In this document: positions 3,257-47,701 of the stretch, piece by piece
Position numbering within the stretch: position 1 is the stretch's first letter
How the letters are laid out: each line of letters begins with the position of its first letter
DNA from: Puniceicoccales bacterium
GTDB lineage: Bacteria > Verrucomicrobiota > Verrucomicrobiia > Opitutales > LL51
Reading direction: 5' to 3'
Assembly (NCBI GenBank): GCA_031257405.1
Contig: JAIROS010000017.1
Coordinates: 34,046 to 98,045, forward strand
DNA: 64,000 bases
Position numbers and translations under genes: made by a program
The notes under the pieces: model-generated
The model's database searches: none
What the model was told of the DNA's origin: nothing
What the model saw: only the letters and a program-made list of their open reading frames with translations

Positions 3257-3527
3257 CATTTTTCTAATACCCAAAATATCCAACGATGCAAGATTTACTT
3301 TAGATTAACGAAAAAAATTTTCTTTGCGCCGAGCCGGAGAAATTTTGAAGCGTTATGAAGCGAATATTTTTAAATATTTTTCACGTAATTTCACTGAGCG
3401 CCACATTACCCCACACAGAAGTTGCTTCAAAACTTCCCAAATTCACCAAAAAATACCTACACAACCGGGCCCCAAAAGAAAAATTTTTCGGGAAAGTTAT
3501 CCATTAAGTAATAAGTTTATAAAAAAA

Positions 3528-3618
3528 CAGGCCCCGCGGCGTAGCCGCGGGGCCTGAGCGCCCTCAGCCCAAGGAGCATAGCTCCTCTTAAGGGGTTCAA
3601 GGGGAAGGAGTCCCCTTG
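3528..3618. repeat. GC-rich palindrome cluster, element A
   Basis: Perfect 13-bp stem with GTA loop at 3528-3556. aggagc-ata-gctcct at 3572-3586. caagggg-7nt-ccccttg at 3598-3618, overlapping the last codons of the PAP2 gene. 3529-3553 is identical to 34905-34929. Confidence 0.85.
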
Positions 3619-4112
3619 GAAATCCCCTTCGCTGGCGGAAATACAAACAATCTATCAATCAAAAATGCAATCGAAAATCCAACAATAACGTCCCGCCAAT
3701 GATGATATTGCCCATAAATTCGACTGTAGGCGGTCAAAGCAGCGAGCACGACCATCGGTGCCCCCCACCTCCACCCGTAGCGCCTGTACAAAAAAAATGC
3801 CCCCTGGAAAGAAGCCGCCGCGTGGCCCGACGGAAAAGATTTCGTCCCCCCATAGGGGCGAACGCCGATCGCCCAATCACCCGTAAAAAATTTTATACCC
3901 TGCACAACGATCACCATTAAAATAAGAGCACCGGTAAATTGCCCGAAGCCCTCCCGATCCCTGCGGAAAATACTCACCGCAAAACCCATACACGGAATGG
4001 CGATTTGTAAGTAATTTCCAGCTATTACCAGCGGTTCTCGACTACCCAAAATAAAAAAAAAGCAGCCTAAAATGGTCAATAAAAATATAATTCTCAAACC
4101 CTGAACACTCAT
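3597..4112 (-). CDS. PAP2-family membrane phosphatase
   Basis: KSFPSGHAA and SRIYGQYHHWRDV acid-phosphatase motifs, multiple TM helices. Start moved to Met67 (4112) because the upstream part of ORF 3597..4310 translates tRNA-Asp. Confidence 0.8.
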   Translation of the reverse strand: MSVQGLRIIFLLTILGCFFFILGSREPLVIAGNYLQIAIPCMGFAVSIFRRDREGFGQFTGALILMVIVVQGIKFFTGDWAIGVRPYGGTKSFPSGHAAASFQGAFFLYRRYGWRWGAPMVVLAALTAYSRIYGQYHHWRDVIVGFSIAFLIDRLFVFPPAKGISKGTPSP

Positions 4113-4164: not shown

Positions 4165-4241
4165 TGGCGGGATGGACGGGACTCGAACCCGCGACCTCCT
4201 GCGTGACAGGCAGGCGCTCTAACCAATTGAGCTACCACCCC
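4165..4241 (-). tRNA. tRNA-Asp (GUC)
   Basis: Reverse complement GGGGTGGTAGCTCAATTGGTTAGAGCGCCTGCCTGTCACGCAGGAGGTCGCGGGTTCGAGTCCCGTCCATCCCGCCA. Cloverleaf with CTGTCAC anticodon loop, GGTTCGAGTCC T-arm and encoded CCA. Confidence 0.95.
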
Positions 4242-4321
4242 CTTTACGCCGAATGATGCTGAAAGTTGCACGCCCATTGTCAAGCTCCGTTTAAAAAATT
4301 GTCGCCCCATAATCAGCTAAA

Positions 4322-4586: not shown

Positions 4587-5481
4587 TTTTTTTCCCCGGC
4601 TTCTGCAGACTACCTATCACAATCGCACTCCGCCGCCCACAACCAATACACCAGCGATCACCATGTAAAAAAATTTGACACGGCTCACAGGAAATATCCT
4701 CAAACCATCGCTCACTCTCAATCTTACAAAACTCCCCGCCTACACCAATCATACAGCCGGGATGGGGCGTCAGTGCGCGGATGCGCCAAATTAATTCCCG
4801 CGCCGGATGATGAAAATTTAACCCCATATCCCCCTTCTCTACCTTCCGACAAAACGTTACCCCCAACGGATCCTGGACTTCCCGCCTAAACGTCCCCTCC
4901 AGCAAAGAATGTAAATTGCGTTTCAAAATTTCCTTTGCGGCCAGCGATAACTTTTGGGTAACGGACGCCACGTTGTCAGCGCTTTCGATCGCCACGGCCT
5001 CCCGATCCAACACGTCGCCGGCATCCATCTCCTTGACCACCTCCATCAATGAAATCCCCGTCTCGGAAACCCCGGAGGCAATCGCCGCTTCAATGGGCGC
5101 CGCCCCACGAAAACGCGGCAGTAAAGAAGCGTGAAAATTAAAAATCCCCCGCCCCGGTAATTCGCGGACCGCTTTCCCTAAAATATGCCCGTACGCCATC
5201 ACCAAAATTAGGTCGCAACCTGACTCCCCCATCCATTTTACCGTCTCCTCCCTAGGTTTTTCGGGGCGAAATAGCGGGATAGAATGTTCCATGGCCCACC
5301 GCGCGACGGAATTGGGTAGTAATTTTTGTCCGCGGCCCGACCTCCGATCCGGCTGCGTCACAACGCCACTCAAAATCCCCCCCCACTCGCTCCCCAACAG
5401 GAGGTGTTCCAACAGGAGGTGTTCCAACAGGGGTAACGCGATGGAATGCGACCCCATAAATATTATTTTTTGCTGCTCCAC
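4477..5481 (-). CDS. fmt: Methionyl-tRNA formyltransferase
   Basis: IIFMGS...VVTQPDRRSGRGQK, NFHASLLPRFRGAAPI (formyltransferase HxSLLP motif), C-terminal Fmt domain. Confidence 0.95.
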   Translation of the reverse strand: MEQQKIIFMGSHSIALPLLEHLLLEHLLLGSEWGGILSGVVTQPDRRSGRGQKLLPNSVARWAMEHSIPLFRPEKPREETVKWMGESGCDLILVMAYGHILGKAVRELPGRGIFNFHASLLPRFRGAAPIEAAIASGVSETGISLMEVVKEMDAGDVLDREAVAIESADNVASVTQKLSLAAKEILKRNLHSLLEGTFRREVQDPLGVTFCRKVEKGDMGLNFHHPARELIWRIRALTPHPGCMIGVGGEFCKIESERWFEDISCEPCQIFLHGDRWCIGCGRRSAIVIGSLQKPGKKMLPVEIFFNGHRDFFEHRWVENFGAMRPFESKVFPF

Positions 5482-5603
5482 GGAAGTGATTTTTGCGTTA
5501 AAAAACTTTCCGCAAGCCCGTTTTTTCGTAAAAATTTAAAGAAAAATAATCAAACTCATGAAAATTATTGCTTAGCCGAACGATCCCCATTAGTCATTGA
5601 ATC

Positions 5604-6887: not shown

Positions 6888-8120
6888 TTAGGCGTCGGTT
6901 TCAGTCGCATCTGTGTCCACATCTGTCTCCACATCTGTTTCCACATCTGTTTCTGTCTCCGTCTCCGCATTTGCCCTTAATCTCGCCCTGATCATATCAA
7001 TTACAGTCGGATCGCGATTACTTTCGGCATAGTCCATTGCAGTTTTTTCATCATTATCCGCCGCAGCCAAATCTATTCTGGGGAAATTCTCCAAAATTTT
7101 TCTGACAATTTCCGGATTTCCCGTGGCAACGGAAAGTATCAATAAATTCCGCCCTCTGGCATCTCTCCACTCCCCGTCTAACATCGGACCATGCTCCTCT
7201 ATAATTCTTGCCATTCCGTCTAAATCCCCTTCCATAATCGCATCACGTAATGCTTCTTCGTAAACAGGCTCCGGCCTTTCCGCTCTCATAGTAGCCAATT
7301 TAGCACGAAATTTCCTAATATTGCGCTGCGCCCTTCTGAGCGTTTTCTTTACAGTTTGGCCGTTTCTATCTCTTGCATCCGGATCAAAAGTAAGATTTCC
7401 CATTATCTTCTCAATGATTGGCAATAAAATTTCAAAATTTGGTTGGCCTACTTTCGGCACAAACTCATGCAGTATCGTTTGACCGAGACTATTGCGTGCA
7501 TCGGCATTGGCAGTAGGTAAGTCCAACAGGAGATTTAAAATTTCCCATGCCCTACACTTCGCGCACATGTGCAAAATCGTATCCCCCATCACATTGTATA
7601 AATTGGGATTAAATCTTGGAGCATTTATCAGCAACCGCGCTATCTCAGCCGCCAATCCGGGCCTCATTCTCTCAAACCTTTCCCTTTGGCAAACCACAAA
7701 CATGATCAGTGTCTCCCGTCTCTGCTCATTTACGATCGCATTAGGATTAACTCCTGCACCTAACAAAAAGGCAATGGTATTTGTATCTCCATCAATTACG
7801 GCCTGTATTAATTGTCTTTCCAGCGAAGGCTCTTCGTTCACCGGGTTTCCCCTTACTACAAAACCCGGATTGAGCAATCCTGGAAAAAACAGAGGAGGAA
7901 GAAACGGAAACATTCTTACCGCTGGCTGTCCTCTTTCCACTTCCCTACGCGGTGCCTCTTCCCCTGGCAGTATTCTCGCCGCGCCCTCTTCTCCTACTTC
8001 CTCTGGCGGTGCTTCTCCTAAATTCGATGCGCCGGACCCGTCATCAGCAGAAGCCAGCAGCACTCCACTTCCACCTAATAATAACAGAACTGTGCTTATT
8101 TTACTTATTTTACGTGACAT
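6888..8120 (-). CDS. Secreted ankyrin-repeat protein with acidic (E/D-T-D-V)n C-terminal tail
   Basis: Signal-peptide-like N-terminus (KISTVLLLLGGSGVLLASA). Several ANK-like units (GDTILHMCAK, LGQTILHEFV, RGRNLLILSVATGNPEIVRKIL). Tail is ETETETDVETDVETDVDTDATETDA. Confidence 0.8.
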   Translation of the reverse strand: MSRKISKISTVLLLLGGSGVLLASADDGSGASNLGEAPPEEVGEEGAARILPGEEAPRREVERGQPAVRMFPFLPPLFFPGLLNPGFVVRGNPVNEEPSLERQLIQAVIDGDTNTIAFLLGAGVNPNAIVNEQRRETLIMFVVCQRERFERMRPGLAAEIARLLINAPRFNPNLYNVMGDTILHMCAKCRAWEILNLLLDLPTANADARNSLGQTILHEFVPKVGQPNFEILLPIIEKIMGNLTFDPDARDRNGQTVKKTLRRAQRNIRKFRAKLATMRAERPEPVYEEALRDAIMEGDLDGMARIIEEHGPMLDGEWRDARGRNLLILSVATGNPEIVRKILENFPRIDLAAADNDEKTAMDYAESNRDPTVIDMIRARLRANAETETETDVETDVETDVDTDATETDA

Positions 8121-8283
8121 AATTCATCCTTCCACGGCCTATATAATACCAGAAAACTGAACCGCGTCAAGTTTTTTTTCGAAAAAAATATGAAATAAAT
8201 TATTTTTTATTTTTTGGGAGTTTAAAGAAAATTTCGTAAAGGATAAGTATTTTTTATTAAATTATAAAAAAAAGCAAAAAAAT

Positions 8284-8677
8284 GTTTTGCCTAGATATAA
8301 GCCGGATTCTGTAGGCTCTGCGCCCGGAATTCATTTATCTAATAACTTTTATAAGCTATTTCTCCCGGAGGAGATGCGACTAACCCGGAATAATCGGGCG
8401 AGCAACCCTATTCCTTATTTGTCTTGCACCGGATTGGGTTTCCATTGCGACGCCCATTGCTGCGCGCCCGGTGAGCCCTTACCTCGCCTTTTCACCCTTA
8501 CCTCGCGGCGGTATCCTTTCTGCTGTACTTTCCGTGGCCATCGTTTAGCGACAACCCCCGCACTTTCATGCGGAATCCTGCTCTGCGGTGTCCGGACTTT
8601 CCTATGGAGAAACGTTGCGGCGACAAAATATATCTCTCGTCCGCAGCCTCCCCCATCGAATTCCCTCTAGGCAAAAC
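8284..8677 (-). ncRNA. rnpB: RNase P RNA, bacterial type A
   Basis: Minus strand carries GGAAAGTCCGGAC (P4 5' strand), GGTAAGGGTGAAAAGGCGAGGTAAGGGCTCACC (P10-P12 region) and ACAGAATCCGGCTTAT (P4 3' strand). P1 pairs GTTTTGCCTAGA with TCTAGGCAAAAC at the two ends. Confidence 0.9.
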
Positions 8678-8831
8678 GCCACCAGTAGAACTAAAACTGC
8701 CACCGATGCAAGCTTTATTTTAATTTATTTTTTCGGTAAAAATTTTATGTCAATTTAATAATTTACCGGCGATAAAATTAAAATTACCACCGGCGTAAAT
8801 TTTATTTTTTCTTATCTTTTTTGAAAAACTT

Positions 8832-10097
8832 TTACCGCAATCCAATGGGCATCAATTTGTCGTTAAGTGTACCCAATCGATTTATACGACTCATATCATC
8901 CTGCGCCATGAGAAAATCATTGTACAGCTGAGTGTTGTAATTAATTATCTGCAATTGTAATACATAAGGATCCGGTATTGGCATGCCTAACTGATTAAAT
9001 AAAAAGTGAATTTTCCTACGAACGGCATCAATCAATTGATTCATACCACATGTCCTGGGATTAGCCACATTTACCCGGGGATCAATCGATAACCCTACCA
9101 AATTTATTAATGCCTGAGGTATATTGGGACCGATAACTTGCTCCACATCGAGTTCCTCACGATGATCGTTGAGTACATCATCGATGTCGTTCGTTAAATT
9201 ATTAAGATCCCTCACTTCAAGCAATTCATTCACTATTGCTCCTATCTGAGCTGGAGTAAGTCTTCCATCTGGATTACGGCTAGGAAGACGTGAAACGGCA
9301 TTCCCAAGCACCTCCCGCATAATTCTTTTAACCATCATATCGTAATCTGCCAAACTCCGCCGACAAATGGCATTCATAAAATTGGTCGCTAATCTTCCAT
9401 CAAATTGTCCCACCAAACTCACATCAAATACAATCTGCAAAGGTAACTTATTACTACCCGTCCCACGCCGATTGACATCAACCCGCGGCTCGTTAATTAA
9501 TCGCCAAACCATCGCTACCCTTACGTCGAGGGGAACAAGATTATTCCCGAGCGCCGCAAGTAATAGCGTCGCATTATCTATATTGGGAATATTCGGATCG
9601 ACTTCAAGCCTGCCAAGTAGCGCTTCAAGACACTCCAGTCGCCCCCAACCTCCCGTTAAGAATAGCGCCGTCTGCCCTCTCGCATTCTGAAGATTCCAAT
9701 TCCGAAGTTCGTACCGCATGATGAGATTAAAAATTCTTTGATAATTTTCACCAAAAATATCCTGCCCACCACCCTTTATCGCTAGCATCAGATCCGTATT
9801 GCCCTCATTATCCGTCGCATTAAAGTCTATACGCGGATTATCTAGAAAAAGCCTGACCATTGCTTCATTACCAGTCCGGACCGCATTCAAATAGTACGTA
9901 TCGCCGTGGGGATCACCGGGAATCCTTTGCGTAGCCATTGCGAGTACAATGTTCGGCGCCATGTCGATTAGCGCCTGCTGATTTCCTTCAACGTCGGCCC
10001 CCTGAGTGCCATGGGCCACATTGCCCATAAAACCCGTAACCATCAATACATTGCATCCCATGCAACCCAATAACTTTTTTCGAATATGTTTTACCAT
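8832..10097 (-). CDS. Secreted ankyrin-repeat-containing protein (ANK N-terminal half, unknown C-terminal half)
   Basis: Hydrophobic N-terminus. ANK-like units TDNEGNTDLMLAIKGGG, ARGQTALFLTGGWGRLECLEALL and DNATLLLAALGNN. Confidence 0.7.
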   Translation of the reverse strand: MVKHIRKKLLGCMGCNVLMVTGFMGNVAHGTQGADVEGNQQALIDMAPNIVLAMATQRIPGDPHGDTYYLNAVRTGNEAMVRLFLDNPRIDFNATDNEGNTDLMLAIKGGGQDIFGENYQRIFNLIMRYELRNWNLQNARGQTALFLTGGWGRLECLEALLGRLEVDPNIPNIDNATLLLAALGNNLVPLDVRVAMVWRLINEPRVDVNRRGTGSNKLPLQIVFDVSLVGQFDGRLATNFMNAICRRSLADYDMMVKRIMREVLGNAVSRLPSRNPDGRLTPAQIGAIVNELLEVRDLNNLTNDIDDVLNDHREELDVEQVIGPNIPQALINLVGLSIDPRVNVANPRTCGMNQLIDAVRRKIHFLFNQLGMPIPDPYVLQLQIINYNTQLYNDFLMAQDDMSRINRLGTLNDKLMPIGLR

Positions 10098-15900: not shown

Positions 15901-16814
15901 GCCCTGGGATGCGCCCGATTGTACGCCGCCTGCATAAACCCAGAATGCACATGGGTGTAAATCTGCGTCGTCGATAAATGCGTGTGCCCCAAAAGCTCCT
16001 GCACCAAACGAAGATCAGCACCGCTATTGAGCATGTGAGTGGCGTAACTGTGGCGCAATTTGTGGGGACTTATATCCATCGGTAAATTCCCGTGCCGCAA
16101 ATAAAATTTCAGCCGATTCTGTACCTGCCGCGCCGTTAAACGCTCCCCACGCTCCTCAACGATCACCCACCGATCACAAGTCATAGCTATCCCCGTCCCC
16201 TCCCTAAATCGCTCCAGCGCCCGAACCGAATAACGGCCAATGGGACAAAGACGCTCCTTGCCCCCCTTGCCCAAAATTTTTACAGAACATCGCCCAAAAT
16301 CAATATCCCCGTAGCGCAACGATAGCAACTCGCCCAAACGCATGCCACTGTTGTAAAGCAATTCCAGGATCAGCGTGTCTCGCAAAAATAAAAATTTTGA
16401 AATTTTTTCCTCCCCAAATAGTTTTTCCGGCAGGTGAAGGAGTTGGGCGACCTCCTGCGGCGACAGAATTTTGGGTAAAGTTTTATCTTTTTTTGGTCCT
16501 TTGAGGTTCACAAATGGGTTAGCGGCGATTATTTTTTTCCGCTCCAGAAATACAAATAACGCTTTCAGGCCCGACAGACGATTGGCTACCGTCGATTTTT
16601 TATTACGCCCCCAAAACTCGATTAAATACTGGCGGACGGTCCATTCATCGACAGCTTCCCAGTCGCGGATCGCACTATAGTGCAGTAAAAAATTAATAAA
16701 TTTTTCAATAGATGTCACGTAACTCTCCAGCGTATGGGGCGACAATTGCCGCTCGACTTCCAGGGTGCGGATAAATTCGGCGTAGGGGAAATGCATGGGT
16801 CGGTTCCTTTCCAT
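15897..16814 (-). CDS. Tyrosine recombinase, XerC/XerD family
   Basis: N-terminal SAM-like domain and C-terminal catalytic signature HKLRHSYATHML...LLGHTHLSTTQIYTHV. Confidence 0.85.
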   Translation of the reverse strand: MERNRPMHFPYAEFIRTLEVERQLSPHTLESYVTSIEKFINFLLHYSAIRDWEAVDEWTVRQYLIEFWGRNKKSTVANRLSGLKALFVFLERKKIIAANPFVNLKGPKKDKTLPKILSPQEVAQLLHLPEKLFGEEKISKFLFLRDTLILELLYNSGMRLGELLSLRYGDIDFGRCSVKILGKGGKERLCPIGRYSVRALERFREGTGIAMTCDRWVIVEERGERLTARQVQNRLKFYLRHGNLPMDISPHKLRHSYATHMLNSGADLRLVQELLGHTHLSTTQIYTHVHSGFMQAAYNRAHPRA

Positions 16815-19037: not shown

Positions 19038-19823
19038 TTATAACACTTCGGGTTTGCTATCGCCGCCGCCACTCTCACTGCCCGTGCCATTTTCCTTCAC
19101 TCCACTCGCCTTCAAAACCGCCGCCGAACTCGGAATCGTCTGCAAAATATCATTCGTCGTCCCTCCGCCACCCCACGCCACTAACTTCCCCGCACTATTC
19201 CCTTCTTCACCATCCCCACCCAGATCCTCATACCACTCGACGTGCCCATCGAGATAAGCAATGTACCCCCCCTTGCTCCCATATACGCCGCCCTCCTTGG
19301 GATCACTTTTATTCTCGGGCCATCTGGCGACACCGCCACTTACCTCCGGAATCCCGCGGGTAAACGCAATGGGCGTCGTCGATAGCGGCGCATCCATCGG
19401 TACGTTATTGATCAGATAAACACTAAATTCTATGTCATCGTCGCCGTCCCAGGCGTTGTTATCCGCCAAACTCGAGTCCACGATCGCTTTTCTGACCACC
19501 TTCGACGCCCCACTATCTCCGGAAAAAGAATAAATATTGGGGTCATTCAAGTACCCGCCGCGCGCCAATACGAGTGCCCACTCCTTTCCCGTCGCCTTAT
19601 CGGTCAAATTAATATTGCGTCCATTGACGTCGTCGTTGCAGTACTGGCTATAGGCCATGGCGATTTGTTTCAAACAGTTGGCGCCTTTAGTCCGACGGGC
19701 GCTGTCCATCACCTTATTAACTGCGGGAACGAGTAACGAAATCAAAATCCCTATGACCGCGATCGCGATCAGCAGCTCAATCAGTGTAAATCCCCCGGTT
19801 ATTTTTTTTCTTTCCACTTTCAT
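19038..19823 (-). CDS. Prepilin-type pseudopilin (paralogue 3)
   Basis: KKITGG|FTLIELLIAIAVIGILISLLVP, GGYIAYLDGHVEWY. Confidence 0.8.
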   Translation of the reverse strand: MKVERKKITGGFTLIELLIAIAVIGILISLLVPAVNKVMDSARRTKGANCLKQIAMAYSQYCNDDVNGRNINLTDKATGKEWALVLARGGYLNDPNIYSFSGDSGASKVVRKAIVDSSLADNNAWDGDDDIEFSVYLINNVPMDAPLSTTPIAFTRGIPEVSGGVARWPENKSDPKEGGVYGSKGGYIAYLDGHVEWYEDLGGDGEEGNSAGKLVAWGGGGTTNDILQTIPSSAAVLKASGVKENGTGSESGGGDSKPEVL

Positions 19824-33855: not shown

Positions 33856-34075
33856 AAACAAAAATTTTACCCCATCGCCATCCCGCCGTCGACCGTGACC
33901 ACCGCGCCCGTTATGTAACTCGCCCCAGCAGAACACGAATGGGTAATTTGTTCGATGTGGACCGCCGCCGGTTTCCCGCAAATACTACACTTGAGTGATT
34001 CCATAAACAAAAATTTTACCCCATCGCCATCCCGCCATCGACCGTGACCACCGCGCCCGTTATGTAACTCGCCCC
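33797..34075. repeat. Tandem duplication (period 149 bp) spanning the mcsA 5' end, the intergenic region and the fabG 3' end
   Basis: 130-bp copies at 33797-33926 and 33946-34075 differ at about 3 positions. They create a pseudo fabG 3' end and a pseudo mcsA start (ATG complement at 34002-34004). Confidence 0.95.
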
Positions 34076-34762
34076 TTCGGAGCATAAAAAATCCACGGCG
34101 TGGGCGATATCTTCGGGAGTCCCCATGCGCTTCATGGGAATCAATTTTTTGGTTTCTTCAATAATTTTTTCGGACAGCGCGGCGGTCATATCGCTTTCGA
34201 TGAACCCGGGCGCCACTACGTTGACGCAAATCCCGCGGGAAGCGACCTCCTTCGCCACCGACCTGCTAAAACCAATCATCCCCGCCTTCGCCGCAGCATA
34301 ATTCGCTTGCCCAAAATTACCAGTTTTACCAATAATTGAAGAAATATTTACAATTCTGCCCCAGCGATTCTGTACCATCCCCCGCAAAAGATGTTTGGTC
34401 CAGTGAAAACAGCTGCTCAAATTCGTCCCAATCACATCCTCCCAATCCTCCGTACTCATCCGCATCAGCAACGCATCGCGCGTAATCCCAGCATTATTGA
34501 CCAAAATATCAATCGCACCGTGCTTCGCCAGTAAATCCCCACAAATTAACTCCACTGCCCCCCCGTCGGAAACATCCACGGAAATCGCTCCCGCTTCTCC
34601 ACCACCGGCAATAATCTCCTGGGCAATTTGCTCGCAATTCTTCGAACGACTAACACAAATCACGTAAATCGACCGCCGCGCCAATTTTTTCGCAATCGCC
34701 GCCCCTAAACCACGGCCAGCCCCCGTCACTAACGCAACCCGCTTCTCTCCGACTCCTACCAC
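34016..34762 (-). CDS. fabG: 3-oxoacyl-[ACP] reductase
   Basis: KRVALVTGAGRGLGAAIA (TGxxxGxG), NNAG, SSIIGKTGNFGQANYAAAKAG (YxxxK), ITGAVVTVDGGMAMG. GTG start at 34762 is proposed (249 aa) because the longer ORF runs through palindromic element B. Confidence 0.9.
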   Translation of the reverse strand: MVGVGEKRVALVTGAGRGLGAAIAKKLARRSIYVICVSRSKNCEQIAQEIIAGGGEAGAISVDVSDGGAVELICGDLLAKHGAIDILVNNAGITRDALLMRMSTEDWEDVIGTNLSSCFHWTKHLLRGMVQNRWGRIVNISSIIGKTGNFGQANYAAAKAGMIGFSRSVAKEVASRGICVNVVAPGFIESDMTAALSEKIIEETKKLIPMKRMGTPEDIAHAVDFLCSEGASYITGAVVTVDGGMAMG

Positions 34763-34861
34763 AAACCCATTATGGCCGCATCCCCCCCTAACGTCAATAG
34801 GGATTTTTAAAATAATTTTTTCACCACCTATAGAAATAATTATATCGGGCTTCCGCCCCCT

Positions 34862-34939
34862 CCCAGGCCCCGCCAGGAGTCGTAGACTCCTTGGCCTGCT
34901 TCGCAGGCCCCGCGGCGTAGCCGCGGGGCGGGGCCTGGG
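34862..34939. repeat. GC-rich nested palindrome, element B (78 nt, cloverleaf-shaped)
   Basis: An 11-bp perfect closing stem (34862-34872 with 34929-34939) encloses three hairpins with GTA, TTC and GTA triloops. 34905-34929 is identical to 3529-3553. Confidence 0.9.
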
Positions 34940-35023
34940 CTTAGGTCTGCACAAAAATTCACCTCCTGTGAAGGGATTAAAAAAAAGATATCTTCTTTTC
35001 CGGCGGGCTTTATTTTTACATTT

Positions 35024-37813
35024 CTATCGTCGTCGACAAATCCGTGCGCGTTGCCTCCTTCGTTCCGCTTTTTCGATCTCGGATTCATCCCCATCTTCTG
35101 CGCCTCTGCGGAATATTTTACCCCAATTTAACTTTATTTTCTCAGGTTTATAGGTCGCCTTTTCGAAGGAAGGCCTCTCGTAGTCGTTAGTTAAAATAAA
35201 TTCATCCGGTTTCAGCGTCGGTTCTCCCGCCAAATTGCCCTCCGTAAAGAAGCGACTCAGCTGCGCCGTCTGGGTATCATCGTGGTGGATAATGGTCGGC
35301 GTGATGATATAAATCCGCTCCGTCACACTATTGCCGCGGTTACTCATTTTAAACAGATGGCCGATGAGTGGGATATCTTTCAGGATGGGGATACCGGCGG
35401 AACTGACTTCGTGTATTTCTTTGAAGGAGCCGCCGATAAATAGACTCTGCCCCTCGAAAACCGATGCCTCCGTATTGACCGTCCGCGTCGTGGTACCCGG
35501 ACCACTGGAGCCCTGACGCGGATTAGTAGTAAACCCACCGTCTTGGACCTCAATTAACAATTTAATTTTTGGCATACCGTTGGCATCAAATTCCCCCATA
35601 ATAATATGGGGGACCACCGTTAATTTAGTGGAGACCGTCACGTCGAATAGCCCGCCCGCCTTTGCTCCTTGGGTTTCCACGTAGGCGGTTTCGGACGTAT
35701 CGATCACGGCGCCGATATTATCCAAAGTAATGACCGACGAGCGGATTAGCGTCTGTCCATTGCCGACCTCCTCCAGGATATTCAGCGTTTCGGACATGGA
35801 ATAATTTTTAAATAATTTATCAAAATTCATAACCAAACTCGCCTCTGTGGCATCCAAAAAATTAAAGGAAATGCGCTTCGATTTTTTTTCCGCGTCCGCT
35901 GCTGTGGTACCAGCGCCTCCAGCGGCTACCGCCATACGCCGATTAGCTTCCAATTTGGAACGTATTTTTAGGGAACCGGATTTGGTGATATCCACTACGG
36001 CGATCTCGATTTTCAGCGCATCCCTGGAGACGTCCAGTTGCTGAATAATGCTCTCAATAAAGGGCATATCCTGGCGCTTGGCTTTGACAATAACCGCATT
36101 TAAACGCGTATCAAAGGTAACAAAAATATCGCTCAAATTGAGGGGATTTTTTTCCCCTCCCTGGGGGGCCATTTTACCCACGTCTTTGGCTTCGCTGCTA
36201 TCTTTTTTAGCTTTTTCGGCGTGGTAGGCGGTCCCGGGTATGGCTTTTGCCGCAGTCGCTCCACCGGCCTTCGAATTGTCGATCTGTAACCCAATGCTGC
36301 TCTCGCCGACAGGCCCCGTTATCGCTCCCACCATCTGCTGTAGCATCGTCGCAACACCCGGAATATTCATGTTCCCACCGCGGTAATTGACTATCATATC
36401 GTAGGCCCAAGCGTGTTTCAGCGGAAAAGAACGAATGTCGTACACATTGCTGACGCGTTCGATTACAATTTTTTTAGAAAGTTCTTCTATGAGGGACATG
36501 AGTTTAGGGGGGCCGCTCACCACTAAAATACCGGCGGTTTCCAGGGGTCTGAAGGTCACATTGGAGCTCAAAAATCCGAGCTGCGAAATGACCCTAACCA
36601 GGGTACGCATCTCATCGCGATTCATCTGGTAGACCGACGACGACACTTCGTCGCTCTTGTAAACATACATCATACTGCCGTCAAAAAACCAAACTAATCC
36701 GTAGGCATTGATGATATCTTTCCAGAATTGGTGGGGGGTAACGTTACTAAATTTTCCATTGACGACGTCGGCGACTTTATCGCTCACGATGACGTCCATC
36801 GACTGCATCACACAGAAATTGCGGATTAATTCTTTCAGCTCCTGATTTTTAGCGAAGTGGTAATATTCTGCGGTTTTCCAGGGCAGACGGTCAGCGGGGT
36901 CGCCTTCGGTAAGGGCCATTGAAGTGACTATTTCGACGGAACTCAGGTCGATGAGGGGGGTTATTGAATCGCCCATGACTTTACGGGTTAGCGGAATTTC
37001 GCTAGATTTTTCCTGGGCATTTGCTATTGGCGCCGCTGGCGATACAGCCGCCGCTGGCAATGGTCCTGAAATATTTTCATTTAGTGACGATCCCGAAATA
37101 TTTGTTACTGGCGCTGCAGGCAATATAGCTACCGCAGGCAACGATTCCGGAGCATTTGTTACTGGCGTTGCAGGCAATACAGCCGACGCAGGCGGGGGTC
37201 CTGAAACATTTTCATTTAGCAATGGTCCCGGAGTATTTCCATTTGGCAACGATCCCGAAATATTTGTTATTGGCGCTGCAGGCAATACAGCCGCCGCAGG
37301 CAATGGTTCCGAAATATTTGTTATTGGCAATGGTCCTGAAATATTTGTTACTGAATCCACTGGCAATACAGCTGCCGCTGGCAATGGTTCCGGAATATCT
37401 GTTACAGCTGCCGCAGGCAATACAGCCGCCGCTGGCAATGGTCCCGGAGTATTTCCATTTGGCAACGATCCCGAAATATTTGTTATTGGCGCTGCTGGCG
37501 ATATAGCCGACGCTGGCAATGATCCCGGAGTATCCCCAGCCGGAACCACTCCCGACGCTGAACCCTTGGCCCCCATAGCCCTCTTGGGCCCATCAATAAT
37601 GTATATGTCCTTCCTGTTCTTCGGTATCACTCCCCCCGCCTCCAATCCACTCGATACACCCGCTAACGCTCCCCCAGTAGCCGTAGCCCCCCTCTCGCTA
37701 CCCTCCGCCCTGTGAATTAAATCCGAATCACGGCTCAATAATGCGCAAGAAAATGATAATGCCGATAGGCCACAAACTGTGTAAAAAATCCCCTTCATCT
37801 CCCTAAAACCCAA
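35024..37813 (-). CDS. sctC: Type III secretion system secretin with ~300-aa repeat-rich N-terminal extension
   Basis: N0-like YGLVWFFDGSMMYVYKSDE. SctC hallmark FPLKHAWAYDMIVNYRGGNMNIPGVATMLQQMV. Secretin core ending GIPILKDIPLIGHLFKMSNRGNSVTERIYIITPTII. Confidence 0.85.
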   Translation of the reverse strand: MGFREMKGIFYTVCGLSALSFSCALLSRDSDLIHRAEGSERGATATGGALAGVSSGLEAGGVIPKNRKDIYIIDGPKRAMGAKGSASGVVPAGDTPGSLPASAISPAAPITNISGSLPNGNTPGPLPAAAVLPAAAVTDIPEPLPAAAVLPVDSVTNISGPLPITNISEPLPAAAVLPAAPITNISGSLPNGNTPGPLLNENVSGPPPASAVLPATPVTNAPESLPAVAILPAAPVTNISGSSLNENISGPLPAAAVSPAAPIANAQEKSSEIPLTRKVMGDSITPLIDLSSVEIVTSMALTEGDPADRLPWKTAEYYHFAKNQELKELIRNFCVMQSMDVIVSDKVADVVNGKFSNVTPHQFWKDIINAYGLVWFFDGSMMYVYKSDEVSSSVYQMNRDEMRTLVRVISQLGFLSSNVTFRPLETAGILVVSGPPKLMSLIEELSKKIVIERVSNVYDIRSFPLKHAWAYDMIVNYRGGNMNIPGVATMLQQMVGAITGPVGESSIGLQIDNSKAGGATAAKAIPGTAYHAEKAKKDSSEAKDVGKMAPQGGEKNPLNLSDIFVTFDTRLNAVIVKAKRQDMPFIESIIQQLDVSRDALKIEIAVVDITKSGSLKIRSKLEANRRMAVAAGGAGTTAADAEKKSKRISFNFLDATEASLVMNFDKLFKNYSMSETLNILEEVGNGQTLIRSSVITLDNIGAVIDTSETAYVETQGAKAGGLFDVTVSTKLTVVPHIIMGEFDANGMPKIKLLIEVQDGGFTTNPRQGSSGPGTTTRTVNTEASVFEGQSLFIGGSFKEIHEVSSAGIPILKDIPLIGHLFKMSNRGNSVTERIYIITPTIIHHDDTQTAQLSRFFTEGNLAGEPTLKPDEFILTNDYERPSFEKATYKPEKIKLNWGKIFRRGAEDGDESEIEKAERRRQRARICRRR
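37010..37540 (-). repeat. In-frame imperfect tandem repeats inside sctC (Pro/Ala-rich; higher-order period 216 bp)
   Basis: AAPITNISGSLPNGNTPGPL occurs at aa 107-126 and 179-198. Interspersed (E/G)PLPAAAVLPAAP(I/V)TNIS units span aa ~93-266. Confidence 0.9.
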
Positions 37814-40782: not shown

Positions 40783-41010
40783 ATGGGAAAAATATTTGTA
40801 AAATTCCTTATCTTACCCATCCGATTTTACCGATTATTTCTGTCTCCATGTAAAATTTTTTTCTTCGGACCCCATTGCCATTGCCGATTTTCCCCGACTT
40901 GCTCCCATTTTGCCGTGCGCGTACTCCAAAAATATTCCCCGCCAAAAGCATTCCTCCTCATCGCCGCCCGCTTGCTAAAATGTCAGCCCCTGTATCGGAA
41001 AAAATTGTAA
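40783..41010 (+). CDS. yidD: Membrane protein insertion efficiency factor YidD
   Basis: 75 aa, LILPIRFYRLFLSP...CRFSPTCSHFA signature. Confidence 0.85.
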   Translation: MGKIFVKFLILPIRFYRLFLSPCKIFFFGPHCHCRFSPTCSHFAVRVLQKYSPPKAFLLIAARLLKCQPLYRKKL

Positions 41011-41173
41011 ATCTGGCCGCTTTTTTGACCATTTTTTGCGGCAAAAGCCGTGCATGAAATGCACAGGGTGTAAAACAAAGTTTTATACCCTCCAAAGCGT
41101 TTTGGACGCTTTGGGCTTTTGCCGTCACAAAAAATTCACTTGCTGGGGGCGACAAAATTCGCTCTATGGGGGC

Positions 41174-41857
41174 ATGTTTTATTTGGGGCCAATGCACATT
41201 GCCGTTGTTATGGATGGCAATCGCCGCTGGGCTAAAAAAAACAATTTCCCTTTATTTTACGGGCATCGCCGTGGGGTACACGCGGTTAGCGAGGTCACCA
41301 AAACGGCCCTTGATCGCGGGATTTCCCATCTCACATTTTTCGCTTTTTCCACGGAAAATTGGAAGCGTTCGGGGGGTGAAATTTCCTATTTGATGCGACT
41401 ATTTTCCCGTTCCATCGACCGCTACGAAACATTTTTACTCCGCGAAGGGATTTGCGTCCGATTCATTGGGGATTTGGCGCCGCTGGACCCCGATTTACTG
41501 GGCAAAATTTCATCGATTCAAGAGCAAACGCAGCGCAATGAAAAACTTTTTTTGACGATCGCCATCAACTACGGCAGTCGCGATGAGGTCGTCCGGGCCG
41601 TAAAAAAAATGTCAATTAACGAGCTCCAAAATTGTTCCTGGGAAACGTTTCGGCGGCACTTGGATAGCGCGGACTTACCCGACGTCGACCTCTTCATTCG
41701 CACATCGGGGGAGCAGCGTTTGAGCAATTTTCTTCTGCTGCAATCCGCCTATGCGGAACTGATTTTCGTCCAAAAAAATTGGCCGGAGTTCACGGGGGAG
41801 GACTTTGGGGACGTGCTGCAGGAATTCGGCCAACGGAAAAGGAATTTTGGCAAATGA
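41174..41857 (+). CDS. uppS: Undecaprenyl diphosphate synthase
   Basis: HIAVVMDGNRRWA, FAFSTENWKR and RTSGEQRLSNFLLLQSAYAEL motifs. Start moved to MFYLGPMH (41174). Confidence 0.93.
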   Translation: MFYLGPMHIAVVMDGNRRWAKKNNFPLFYGHRRGVHAVSEVTKTALDRGISHLTFFAFSTENWKRSGGEISYLMRLFSRSIDRYETFLLREGICVRFIGDLAPLDPDLLGKISSIQEQTQRNEKLFLTIAINYGSRDEVVRAVKKMSINELQNCSWETFRRHLDSADLPDVDLFIRTSGEQRLSNFLLLQSAYAELIFVQKNWPEFTGEDFGDVLQEFGQRKRNFGK

Positions 41858-44981: not shown

Positions 44982-45023
44982 ATCGTGAATTTTTAAATAA
45001 AAAAAGGGAAATTTCCGCGCGGC

Positions 45024-45111
45024 TTCGGGCAAAAGCTGCGCGCAAAGCGCGCAAAAACATGAACTCCGTTCATGTTTTCAAGGAGCTTTGCTCCTTAAGC
45101 TTTTGCCCGAA
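45024..45111. repeat. Nested palindrome, element C (88 nt, perfect four-way junction)
   Basis: A 14-bp closing stem (45024-45037 with 45098-45111) encloses hairpins at 45038-45052 (6 bp, AAA loop), 45054-45078 (11 bp, TCC loop) and 45080-45096 (7 bp, TTT loop). All stems are perfect Watson-Crick with 0-1 nt linkers. Confidence 0.92.
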
Positions 45112-45145
45112 AGAAACAACTATGCATTGATTTGTCAAGTTATTT

Positions 45146-47701
45146 TTAGCGCACAACGACGTTAAAAATTTTCCCGGGAACATAAATTTTTTTTATAATT
45201 TCCTTACCGGAAACAAATGCCATAAATCGACTCCGCTGCCAGGCGATTTTCTCAACTGCTTCCTGACTCGCATCGCCGTCCACCAAAATTTCATCGCGGA
45301 CTCTGCCATTGACTTGGAGTATTATTTTCGCTTGATTGGCGGCAAATTTAGACGCATCATAGGCCGGCCAGCTCGCCTTTGCAACGGAAAATGCTCCGCC
45401 CAGACGCGCCCACAATTCCTCCGCGATGTGGGGGGCAAAGGGGGCTAACAATTGTAAAAATATGCGCACCGTCGAACGACTAATTCCCATTTTTTGCGCG
45501 CCATTAACAAAAATCATCATCTGCGCGATCGCCGTATTTAATTGCAATGCCTCGATCTCTTCCGTAACTTTTTTTACAGTTTGATGCAACAATGTCTCCA
45601 CGCCAACGCCATCTTCTTCGGGGAATTTTTTTACATTTCCATCGCCGTCAATGCAAAGCGCCCACACCTTCTTCAAAAAACGATACACCCCCTCAATTCC
45701 CTGCGTACTCCACGGTTTCATGGCATTGAGCGGCCCCAAAAACATCTCATAAAGCCGCAGGGAATCGGCACCGTATCGGCAAATTACATCGTCGGGATTT
45801 ACAACATTTCCACGACTTTTTGACATTTTAGTGCCGTCGCTCCCCAAAATAATCCCCTGGTGATACAGCCTCCTAAAAGGCTCCTCGGCCCCAGAAATCG
45901 CACCCACATCGTACAAAAATAAATGCCAAAAGCGCGCGTAAAGCAAGTGTAAAACGGCGTGTTCCGCCCCACCAATGTAAAAATCCGGACTCTTCCAATA
46001 GGCCTCCGCCGCAGGATCCACTAAACTTTCCCCACAATCCGGCGACATGTAACGCAAATAATACCAGCAGGAACCCGCCCATTGCGGCATCGTGTTGCTC
46101 TCGCGCACCGCCGGTACAAAATTTTCCGCCGCCTCCCCGGAAATTTCCCCCGTCGATAAATTTACAAAAATATTAAGCCACCGCTTCGCCCGGACAAGCG
46201 GACTCTCGCCGTCGTCGGAAGGTAAATAGGTGTCCGTCTCGGGTAAAGTCAGCGGCAACTGCGCTTCTGCAACCGGAATCGCACACCACTCAGTACCCCC
46301 CTTCCCGTAGGAAACCACATCGTCCGGAATTTTGCCCATAAAATAAGCGTTTTTCGCCGCCAACGCACGGTCGTAGTGGGCCCGCTCGATCCAAAGAATC
46401 GGCACCGGTTCGCCCCAGTAGCGCTGCCGAGAAAATAGCCAATCGCGCAATTTATATTTCACGGCGACCCTCCCAAAACCTTCCCGTTCCGCCTTTTGCG
46501 TTATTTTTTTCCGTGCTTCGGCCGCCGGTAAACCATCGAATTCGCCCGAGTTAATCAGCCGGCCTTCCCCACAAAACGGCAAAGGTAATTCATTTTTGGG
46601 GTCTGCTATGACTTGTTTTACGGGAATATCAAATTTTTTTGCAAATTCGAAATCGCGGTCGTCGTGGGCCGGTACCGCCATAATCGCCCCCGTGCCGTAG
46701 GACACAAGGACGTAGTCCGCTACCCAAATCGGAATCAATTCCCCGTTGTACGGATTTTTCGCGAAACTCCCCGTGAATACCCCCGACTTCTCTTTGGCCA
46801 AATCTGTGCGCTCCAAATCGCTTTTCCTCTTGGTATCGGCGACGTAGGCCCGGACTTTTTCCCGATTTTCCACCGCCGTTACCCGCTCGACTAATTCGTG
46901 CTCGGGGGCTAAAACGAGGAATGTCGCGCCGTAAATGGTATCGGGACGGGTCGTGTAAACGCAAATTTTGGGGCCATCGGGAACAATCTCAAAGTCCAAT
47001 TCCGTTCCCTCCGAACGCCCAATCCATGCGATTTGCTGGCGCTTCGTCGAGTCCGGCCAGTCGATTCCCTCGAGCCCCCCCAATAATCGGTCCGCATAGC
47101 GCGTGATTCTCAGGACCCACTGGCGTAAATTTTTCCGTTCCACCGGGAAATCCCCCCGCTCCGAACGACCGTTGATCACCTCCTCATTGGCCAATACCGA
47201 CCGCAATTCCGGACACCACCAAACGGGTTTATCATCCACGTACGCCAGCCCGTGTTTAAATAATTGTAAAAAAATCCACTGCGTCCACCGGAAATAATGG
47301 GGGTCCGTCGTATCCACTTCCCGGTCCCAATCGATGGCGAAACCCAGTGACTGAATCTGTTCGCGGAAGCGCCGAATATTATTTTCCGTATTGATTGAGG
47401 GGTGTTGGCCGGTAGCGATGGCGTGTTGTTCGGCGGGCAAACCGAAGGCGTCCCAGCCCATGGGGTGTAAAACATTGAAGCCGTTAGCCCACTTGTAGCG
47501 CGCCAGAATATCCGAAGCGGTATAGCCTTCCGGGTGGCCGATATGCAGGCCTGCGCCCGAGGGGTAAGGGAACATATCCAAAACGTAATATTTTTCCATC
47601 GGACTCTCATTTTCCGCGCGAAAGGTTTTTTCTTCCAACCATTTTTTCTGCCAAAATGGCTCTATTTCCCGGAAGTCATAATTTTTACAGCTTGTGGCCA
47701 T
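45146..47701 (-). CDS. leuS: Leucyl-tRNA synthetase
   Basis: PYPSGAGLHIGH (HIGH), KMSKSRGN (KMSKS), CP1 editing domain, 851 aa. Confidence 0.97.
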   Translation of the reverse strand: MATSCKNYDFREIEPFWQKKWLEEKTFRAENESPMEKYYVLDMFPYPSGAGLHIGHPEGYTASDILARYKWANGFNVLHPMGWDAFGLPAEQHAIATGQHPSINTENNIRRFREQIQSLGFAIDWDREVDTTDPHYFRWTQWIFLQLFKHGLAYVDDKPVWWCPELRSVLANEEVINGRSERGDFPVERKNLRQWVLRITRYADRLLGGLEGIDWPDSTKRQQIAWIGRSEGTELDFEIVPDGPKICVYTTRPDTIYGATFLVLAPEHELVERVTAVENREKVRAYVADTKRKSDLERTDLAKEKSGVFTGSFAKNPYNGELIPIWVADYVLVSYGTGAIMAVPAHDDRDFEFAKKFDIPVKQVIADPKNELPLPFCGEGRLINSGEFDGLPAAEARKKITQKAEREGFGRVAVKYKLRDWLFSRQRYWGEPVPILWIERAHYDRALAAKNAYFMGKIPDDVVSYGKGGTEWCAIPVAEAQLPLTLPETDTYLPSDDGESPLVRAKRWLNIFVNLSTGEISGEAAENFVPAVRESNTMPQWAGSCWYYLRYMSPDCGESLVDPAAEAYWKSPDFYIGGAEHAVLHLLYARFWHLFLYDVGAISGAEEPFRRLYHQGIILGSDGTKMSKSRGNVVNPDDVICRYGADSLRLYEMFLGPLNAMKPWSTQGIEGVYRFLKKVWALCIDGDGNVKKFPEEDGVGVETLLHQTVKKVTEEIEALQLNTAIAQMMIFVNGAQKMGISRSTVRIFLQLLAPFAPHIAEELWARLGGAFSVAKASWPAYDASKFAANQAKIILQVNGRVRDEILVDGDASQEAVEKIAWQRSRFMAFVSGKEIIKKIYVPGKIFNVVVR

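Follow-up and report, generated by a model that had tools for sequence, protein, structure and literature searches.

Repetitive extragenic palindromes (REPs) and bacterial interspersed mosaic elements (BIMEs) are short multi-copy palindromes (20-50 nt) of extragenic DNA, which cluster into mosaics or tandem arrays, with units in either orientation, and are enriched at the 3' ends of genes. The Neisseria intergenic mosaic elements (NIMEs) consist of RS units bounded by dRS3 repeats. In mitochondrial DNA (mtDNA), the double-hairpin elements of Allomyces and chytrids and the GC clusters of yeast are small GC-rich multi-hairpin palindromes which spread between genes, their structure being kept while their sequence varies. 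The REPSm/SMAG sequence of Stenotrophomonas maltophilia (a 'group 3' REP) consists of a perfect palindrome of 16 nt with a 3-nt interruption (PMC8266576). Opitutus terrae, which belongs to the same class as the organism considered here (Opitutae), is rich in GTAG REPs, and the same work mentions dRS3 as CGTC-1 (PMC3733652). Here we examine element C, an 88-nt palindromic element located between the convergent genes hpf and leuS in a 64-kb stretch of DNA from a Puniceicoccales bacterium (hereafter, the window). Element C is probably one copy of a lineage-restricted, tag-less REP/BIME-like family of dispersed extragenic palindromic repeats of an uncultured Puniceicoccales (Verrucomicrobiota) clade, the arms of which would be corrected at the DNA level.

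Like NIMEs, the family of C forms intergenic arrays from a limited vocabulary of short modules, and these arrays vary between relatives at one locus. However, the modules of NIMEs are not known to be perfect triloop palindromes, nor are NIMEs known to form nested cloverleaves. The mtDNA elements belong to other hosts and genomes, have two hairpins in place of the closed four-way junction, and are not known to be related in sequence. The C family shares with REPs and BIMEs the traits given above, and the hairpin style of REPSm is also that of the C family. Unlike the described REPs and BIMEs, it combines several unrelated hairpins, nested in another palindrome, which gives a four-way junction. 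It also differs from them in having no conserved GTAG or CGTC tetranucleotide next to the palindromes, where REPs carry one unpaired at one end, and in this it resembles the 'untagged' stem-loop repeat families (PMC3733652).

Element C and its fold

Element C covers positions 45024-45111 of the window and reads exactly as the original prediction had claimed, as a perfect four-way junction in which a 14-bp closing stem surrounds three perfect hairpins with 3-nt loops. The closing arms (14 nt each, 100% complementary) are 60 nt apart, and the linkers are of 0-1 nt each (A45053, C45079, A45097). The parts of the element and the two flanking genes are the following:

45024-45037: 5' closing arm, TTCGGGCAAAAGCT, which is conserved, apart from compensated substitutions, at L001:128-141, L084:6046-6033(-) and window 41036-41049 (L numbers designate other stretches of DNA, see below)
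45038-45052: hairpin 1 (hp1), GCGCGC-AAA-GCGCGC
45054-45078: hairpin 2 (hp2), AAAACATGAAC-TCC-GTTCATGTTTT, more variable than any other module of the family
45080-45096: hairpin 3 (hp3), or 'M1' module, AAGGAGC-TTT-GCTCCTT
45098-45111: 3' arm of the closing stem, AGCTTTTGCCCGAA
44685-44981, + strand: hpf, short HPF/YfiA-type ribosome hibernation factor of 98 aa (Ribosomal_S30AE/HPF PF02482, E 1.2e-16)
45146-47701, - strand: leuS, encoding LeuRS, convergent with hpf

Folded as RNA, element C has a minimum free energy (MFE) of -53.3 kcal/mol on the + strand (z -9.66) and of -54.3 kcal/mol on the - strand (z -9.18), and none of 200 dinucleotide shuffles is as stable on either strand. The four-way junction is both the MFE and the centroid structure on either strand (ViennaRNA). 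As single-stranded DNA (ssDNA), the element adopts the same fold, with -38.4 and -38.8 on the two strands (z -9.9 and -10.2). The idea that it folds in the same way on either transcript or as DNA is therefore borne out.

An identical element C is found in an independent assembly (Logan contig L081, SRR14710907). The source contig is derived from a metagenome, which could invite the suspicion of a chance similarity or of an assembly artefact, such as a chimeric inverted join. This is hardly credible in view of the z-scores of about -9 to -10 with 0/200 shuffles, of the identical sequence in L081, and of homologues with compensated differences in several independently assembled metagenome-assembled genomes (MAGs). 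Element C is a real, extremely stable and strand-symmetric four-way junction, far beyond chance.

Sister elements, homologues and covariation

A GC-corrected sliding-window fold of the whole window gives four outlier regions (3526-3635, 34846-34955, 41026-41135 and 45016-45125). Three of the four (C, B and A') have the same plan of a closing stem and three triloop hairpins. The features found in the other three regions are:

41036-41128, + strand: element B, a diverged homologue of C with closing-stem core GGCAAAAGC and three hairpins (z -8.9)
34862-34939, no strand assigned: element A', with closing stem CCCAGGCCCCGCC/GGCGGGGCCTGGG, independent of that of C, and three perfect triloop hairpins (z -6.5)
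3528-3556, - strand: stand-alone 'M2' hairpin of 13 bp (12 GC pairs) with a triloop, then U7, which has the canonical form of an intrinsic terminator after tRNA-Asp
3564-3635, no strand assigned: hairpin cluster adjoining the M2 hairpin, with an M1 copy at 3571-3587 and CAAGGGGA-AGGAG-TCCCCTTG at 3598-3618

Element B lies 26 nt past the yidD stop, ahead of uppS. Its closing stem is GCGGCAAAAGCC/GGCTTTTGCCG, the core GGCAAAAGC closes both B and C, and the counterpart of hp1 is GTGCAT-GAA-ATGCAC. Two G.U pairs in B are tolerated on the + strand only.

Element A' is located downstream of the secretin gene of a type III secretion system (T3SS) and its hairpins are AGGAGTC-GTA-GACTCCT (M1-type), GGCCTGC-TTC-GCAGGCC and CCGCGGC-GTA-GCCGCGG (M2-type). 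The M1 copy at 3571-3587 is AAGGAGC-ATA-GCTCCTC, which confirms the predicted sharing of the AAGGAGC module within the window, and a further copy, within A', is present at 34875-34891. The pattern AAGGAGC-nnn-GCTCCTT has two matches in the window (3571 and 45080) for 0.04 expected. Since 26 nt of 3528-3556 recur verbatim within A' (34904-34929), terminator hairpins and repeat modules appear to form one sequence pool; CAGGCCCCGC is common to 3528-3556 and 34862-34939.

The LeuRS of the window is 76-82% identical to proteins of Puniceicoccales bacterium MAGs, and its more distant matches are in Opitutales. The relatives compared here are represented by the leuS or secretin neighbourhoods L001, L083, L084/L211 and L205-L210. 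They contain at least six more elements made of three hairpins in a stem (L001:128-219, L084:5961-6046, L210:12017-12094, 19748-19823, 16486-16575 and 7184-7251), in addition to the two others of the window. The view that no other such elements exist, on which the original prediction would have foundered, is clearly refuted. Two of these elements are homologues of C in sequence:

L001:128-219: homologue of C, 64 nt upstream of lepA
L084:5961-6046, - strand: homologue of C, between the divergent genes metG and dapA

The L001 copy reads TTGGGGCAAAAGCT / GTGCGC-TTT-GCGCAC / AAGACCTG.AGC-AAA-GCT.CAGGTCTT / CAAGGAGCC-AAA-GGCTCCTTG / AGCTTTTGCCCCAA. Compared to hp1 of C, its hp1 (GTGCGC-TTT-GCGCAC) shows a compensated pair and an inverted loop. 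The L084 copy keeps the closing stem (GGAGC.../...GCTCC), a 12-bp hp2 and CAAGGAGTC-GAA-GACTCCTTG. The homologues occupy non-orthologous sites: C between hpf and leuS, B between yidD and uppS, the L001 copy next to lepA and the L084 copy between metG and dapA.

A covariance model (R1), built from the four copies C, B, L001 and L084, scores these copies at 78-105 bits (93.4 bits for B). It detects a diverged fifth member at L210:16486-16575 (32 bits), and has no match in 1.3 Mb of leuS neighbourhoods of other bacteria. In the model-guided alignment, which consists of four sequences only and is fitted to the structure, 98.1% of 159 cells are standard pairs, compared to a shuffled mean of 84.2%, and the proportion of paired cells falls to 27-49% once the partner columns are slid by 1-3. 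Both sides have changed in 20 of the 41 pairs (shuffled mean 7.8), one side in only three, all of them G.U; counted as cells, this amounts to 26 against 3. G.U pairs make up about 2% of the alignment cells. In hp2, both sides have changed in 10 of the 12 pairs. None of 500 shuffles matches the observed paired cells, both-side-changed pairs or cells, or covariation score; the result is less clear for the number of further pair types, where 14 of the 500 shuffles reach the observed value.

Turnover, arrays and shared modules

The conserved gene junctions of the relatives differ in their content of such elements. In L001, where LeuS is 80% identical and the convergent synteny is the same, the leuS-hpf spacer is 80 nt long and lacks C; it has one 10-bp hairpin with a 13-nt loop. 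In the 342-nt spacer of L084, other perfect hairpins stand in a linear row; in L207, leuS is followed by hairpin arrays over 1.5 kb, and the spacer of L210 contains decayed modules only. Judged from these junctions, the leuS-hpf position is a hot spot for such sequences, C itself being specific to the lineage of the window. Similarly, the secretin-fabG spacer of L209 (secretin 81% identical) keeps the fabG promoter block ATTTTAAAAATCCCTATTGACGT...GCGGCCATAATGG, and the segment of about 170 nt which bears A' is absent. The McsB-TPK junction measures 17 nt in the window, 20 nt in L211 and 251 nt, with a cloverleaf, in L210. These three junctions represent three independent gain/loss polymorphisms.

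The spacers of L084, L206, L207 and L210 are packed with perfect hairpins drawn from a common vocabulary:

M1 module, which many elements and arrays of this clade have in common: CAAGGAG(T/C)C-nnn-G(A/G)CTCCTTG, in L001, L084, L206, L207 and L210
M2 module in the relatives: ...GCCCGCGGC-nnn-GCCGCGGGC...
Module in the relatives: CCAGGGGA-TCCA-TCCCCTGG
Module in the relatives: CTAAGGGC-TGCGC-GCCCTTAG
Module in the relatives: TATGGGGC-AGA-GCCCCATA
Module of 17-19 bp, always perfectly paired: GCGGCCAAACCATGCGAA in L207, ACGGCTAAGCCCTGCGA in L084 and TGCGGCCTAGCC(C/A)GGCGAA in L206

Downstream of leuS in L207 (8494-9624), 4.1 copies of a composite unit of 273 nt, itself made of 7-8 perfect hairpin modules, follow each other in tandem with 87% identity. 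The whole array extends over about 8140-9711, with partial inverted units at either end. Arrays are also present in L084 and L206. L084 has 22 perfect hairpins with a stem of at least 8 bp and a 3-nt loop in 22.5 kb, and L207 has 24 of them in 12 kb, compared to 91 in 1.3 Mb of control DNA. Two of the traits by which REPs are recognised are found here: short repeated extragenic palindromes, all elements and arrays being intergenic (four loci over the 64 kb of the window; in L084 and L207, perfect hairpins number in the dozens for 10-20 kb), and clusters or tandem mosaics (L207, L084 and L206), in which units take both orientations.

The nested architecture recurs with unrelated sequences in L210. 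The element at L210:12017-12094 is a perfect four-way junction (z -7.4) located downstream of the secretin gene, like A' in the window, and the one at 19748-19823 has a z of -7.1. The homologue of A' at L210:7184-7251 reads ...GACTCCTT GGCTTCT-TGGC-AGAAGCC CCGCGGC-TTT-GCCGCGGGG. A strict detector of all-perfect elements finds four in 192 kb of clade DNA; over 2.25 Mb of DNA from other bacteria and from metagenomes, it finds a single trivial case, which is AT-rich. A binomial estimate of this enrichment gives P ~2e-4, or ~0.008 without the two discovery cases of the window.

A weak hypothesis derives C from a long hairpin of the 'M8' type (L084 GGCCAAAGATACGCGCA-ATT), the 3' arm of which would have received two modules; the identity is about 12/17 and no flanks are shared. 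A protein similarity between the L001 open reading frame (ORF) 2269-2685 and the A' region proved spurious on inspection of the DNA.

Several observations concern the surroundings of these repeats. A small yidD follows ffh in three genomes (window 40783-41010(+), L084 ~16480-16700, L206 ~5385-5600), and repeats begin a few tens of nt past its stop, as B in the window and as long arrays in L084 and L206. The T3SS secretin (SctC-like, with Secretin, Secretin_N and T3S_SPI-1_N0) is encoded at window 35024-37813(-), at L084 19724-22288, and in L209 and L210; its conservation across the clade hints at a host-associated lifestyle. ORF calls traverse the repeats, which appear as N-terminal extensions in the window ORFs 34016-34954 (fabG-like) and 41036-41857 (uppS), and a called 70-aa 'gene' at L084 5919-6131 is actually the L084 cloverleaf. 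In this way, the repeats give rise to annotation artefacts. Among the control loci, L043 (an Acidobacteriota MAG) has eleven perfect triloop hairpins with a stem of at least 9 bp in 22.5 kb, which suggests another repeat-rich genome, possibly with true REPs.

Nature and maintenance of the family

The location of C between convergent genes and its GC-containing hairpins recall a bidirectional intrinsic (Rho-independent) terminator of hpf and leuS, which would merely be elaborated; the related module 3528-3556, with its U7, has the full textbook form, and an A7/T7 run is present 19-25 nt away from the closing stem on the leuS side. Yet a terminator consensus scan, which does detect 3528-3556(-) as a positive control, finds no terminator-like site at C, B or A' on either strand, and no U-tract or T-run comes after their stems; the closing stem of C is followed in 3' by AGAAACAAC on the + strand and GCCGCGCGG on the - strand. 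Element C is also multi-branched. Of the family members, C, B and A' lie downstream of genes, and others are located in 5' and divergent spacers (the L001 and L084 homologues, respectively). In a survey of 118,019 genomes, the bacterial norm is a spacer of 4 bp, and of 4-5 bp downstream of genes, terminator-associated inverted repeats having mostly 4-5-nt spacers (PMC13155455), as opposed to the 3-nt loops of C. An ordinary terminator is accordingly very improbable, and the original prediction was right that C is more than a simple one. Between the A7 run and C, two overlapping mini-palindromes (GGAAATTTCC and CCGCGCGG, 45007-45022) precede U7 on the leuS strand; they are too weak for a terminator score.

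Searches for other known classes were negative. There is no Rfam 15 match at the gathering threshold in the window, L084, L207, L206 or L001, only sub-threshold noise from miRNA models (E 0.03). ARAGORN and the Rfam tRNA model call five true tRNAs only and nothing tRNA-like at the elements; the loops of C are all 3 nt. A blastn search of the element against plasmid and phage collections gave no match.

The small size of C (about 90 nt), the dispersal of its copies and their intergenic location also recall a classical miniature inverted-repeat transposable element (MITE). In that case, the 14-bp closing stem would correspond to the terminal inverted repeats (TIRs) recognised by the DDE transposase of an insertion sequence (IS) located elsewhere in the genome, the inner hairpins being cargo. 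The closing stem is indeed the best-conserved part of the C family, and an unrelated 67-nt TIR repeat of human-gut contigs shares 11 nt of this terminus of C. However, none of the four copies checked (C, B, L001 and L084) is flanked by a target-site duplication, the same architecture is built with wholly different closing stems in A' and the L210 copies, the inner modules are dispersed independently, and no IS with matching ends was seen in the DNA compared. An origin as a MITE is quite improbable.

The human-gut repeat was encountered in a metagenome-wide scan with the pattern GGGCAAAAGCT-N45-75-AGCTTTTGCCC. The loci which match were rejected as members of the C family, no inner hairpins being present among the matches listed. 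The repeat is 67-69 nt long, with 14-nt TIRs (GGGCAAAAGCTTTA...TAAAGCTTTTGCCC), in at least 120 stretches of the contigs L085-L204 (e.g., L131:3280-3347, 3780-3847 and 4187-4254; L097:5221-5288 and 9458-9525). Its interior is AT-rich with few hairpins and its look is MITE-like. The 11 nt that it shares with the closing stem of C are probably a coincidence of the search pattern.

The hypothesis of a functional cis-acting RNA deserves more attention. According to it, selection would act on the RNA, the junction in the 3' untranslated regions of hpf and leuS, as well as of other genes, stabilising the mRNA, insulating convergent transcription or terminating it without a U-tract. The extreme stability of the fold on both transcripts and the heavy covariation are consistent with this hypothesis. 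The rare non-Watson-Crick pairs of B and of the L084 copy are G.U on the strand which matches the sense of the neighbouring gene, 12 of the 13 arrays or elements have the 3' end of a gene on at least one side, and such roles are credited to REP sequences (PMC8266576, PMC3733652). On the contrary, C is not kept at orthologous sites, one family copy lies between divergently transcribed genes, the modules are found in either orientation and also form tandem arrays, up to 1.5 kb long, and C has no U-tract. The scarcity of G.U pairs and the inversion of loops between copies are not predicted by RNA selection either. A selected RNA therefore seems a fairly unlikely explanation.

In L207, the matching of flanks on shared 8-mers revealed loop inversions: with flanks in the same orientation, the M2 loop is GAA at 8669 and 8942 but TTC at 9497 and 9206, and the M6 loop is ATT at 8998 but AAT at 9553. 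Between C and its L001 homologue, the loops are AAA/TTT in hp1 and TTT/AAA in hp3. Intrastrand template switching between the arms of an inverted repeat has published signatures, namely homogenised arms, 'compensatory' changes of several bases at once and inverted spacers (PMC8604942, PMC8794818, PMC5941160). Quasi-palindrome correction (the Ripley model; PMC8794818, PMC5941160, PMC8604942) accounts for perfect arms, one-step multi-base changes and spacer inversion, all of them seen here. It is a mutational process and not a family of elements, and it covers the maintenance of the repeats, perhaps their origin, but not their dispersal.

A process at the DNA level fits better than RNA selection because the pairs are almost only Watson-Crick, the loops are inverted, the modules lie in both orientations and in long tandem arrays, and one copy stands between divergent genes. 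The original prediction, which had proposed selection or recent spread, is thus upheld for spread, since homologues with compensated stems occupy non-orthologous loci; as for selection on RNA structure, the evidence favours homogenisation of the arms at the DNA level. A census of mismatches in near-perfect hairpins (G.T 9 and A.C 12 of 53) shows no G.U enrichment; it mixes in chance hairpins, disregards the direction of transcription and is weakly informative.

The reading of C as a copy of a dispersed DNA repeat can be laid out as follows. The family, so far undescribed, would be a tag-less variant of the REP/BIME kind. It would rely on a small set of perfect hairpin modules with 3-nt loops, which may be single, arranged in linear or tandem mosaics, or nested in the arms of another palindrome. 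The nesting would create the cloverleaf of a closing stem and three hairpins. The junctions compared show that copies come and go at differing intergenic sites, and the copies would be mobile or dispersed by recombination. As a pattern in the aligned sequences, the arms stay perfectly Watson-Crick and substitutions look compensated in one step. Intrastrand template switching associated with replication, i.e., quasi-palindrome correction, may be what perfects the arms and flips the loops. At the 3' end of the hpf or leuS mRNA, the four-way junction would probably act as a REP-like barrier to 3' exonucleases, a stabiliser or a transcriptional roadblock, but any effect of C as RNA would be secondary.

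Several points weigh against this interpretation. The three G.U pairs of B and the L084 copy are on the family-sense strand, and this strand coincides with the sense strand of a neighbouring gene; strong covariation is also expected of a structurally selected RNA, and the alignment is small and fitted to the structure. Most copies are at gene 3' ends and 3528-3556 has a perfect terminator form, which makes a host function of some modules plausible. The copy number in the source genome is seen over 64 kb only. The missing target-site duplications count here too, as does the lack of GTAG/CGTC enrichment, or of any conserved guide tetranucleotide, beside the palindromes: the commonest 5' tetranucleotides (AGGT, CCCG and CGGT) are conserved only within larger composite units. 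Moreover, no transposase or other mobilising gene was found in the clade DNA searched. For the REP-associated tyrosine transposase (RAYT or TnpAREP, a Y1 HUH transposase), whose gene is typically flanked by REPs to form a REPtron, a tblastn search of about 167 kb of clade DNA with an approximate E. coli RayT query, which is a weak test, gave no match below E=2, and the gene tables of the loci compared in the relatives contain no Y1_Tnp Pfam domain.

One may also ask whether an undescribed class of structure-specific mobile elements has as its functional unit the closed junction itself, in which a closing stem of an element of 76-93 nt surrounds three triloop hairpins that abut each other. This is unlikely, although the junction recurs with unrelated sequences at least twice independently, in the C family and in the A'/L210 types. 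Such a junction could arise when hairpin modules insert at the apex of another hairpin or in its arm, and some enzyme could recognise it as folded ssDNA (or RNA) and not via a sequence tag. Alternatively, it could be a tRNA-sized processing or punctuation signal.

If C is a dispersed DNA repeat, as we consider probable, a 'perfect RNA junction' that catches the eye can arise as a by-product of the biology of DNA repeats. If template switching keeps the arms perfect, covariation alone would wrongly certify this family as a selected RNA. In practical terms, such repeats lead to inflated ORF calls and broken assemblies, and they point to spacers which evolve fast. A dedicated mobilising enzyme, should there be one, would recognise the four-way junction in its folded form, with no guide tetranucleotide. 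The family would be a clean natural example of template switching which keeps palindrome arms perfect and inverts their loops.

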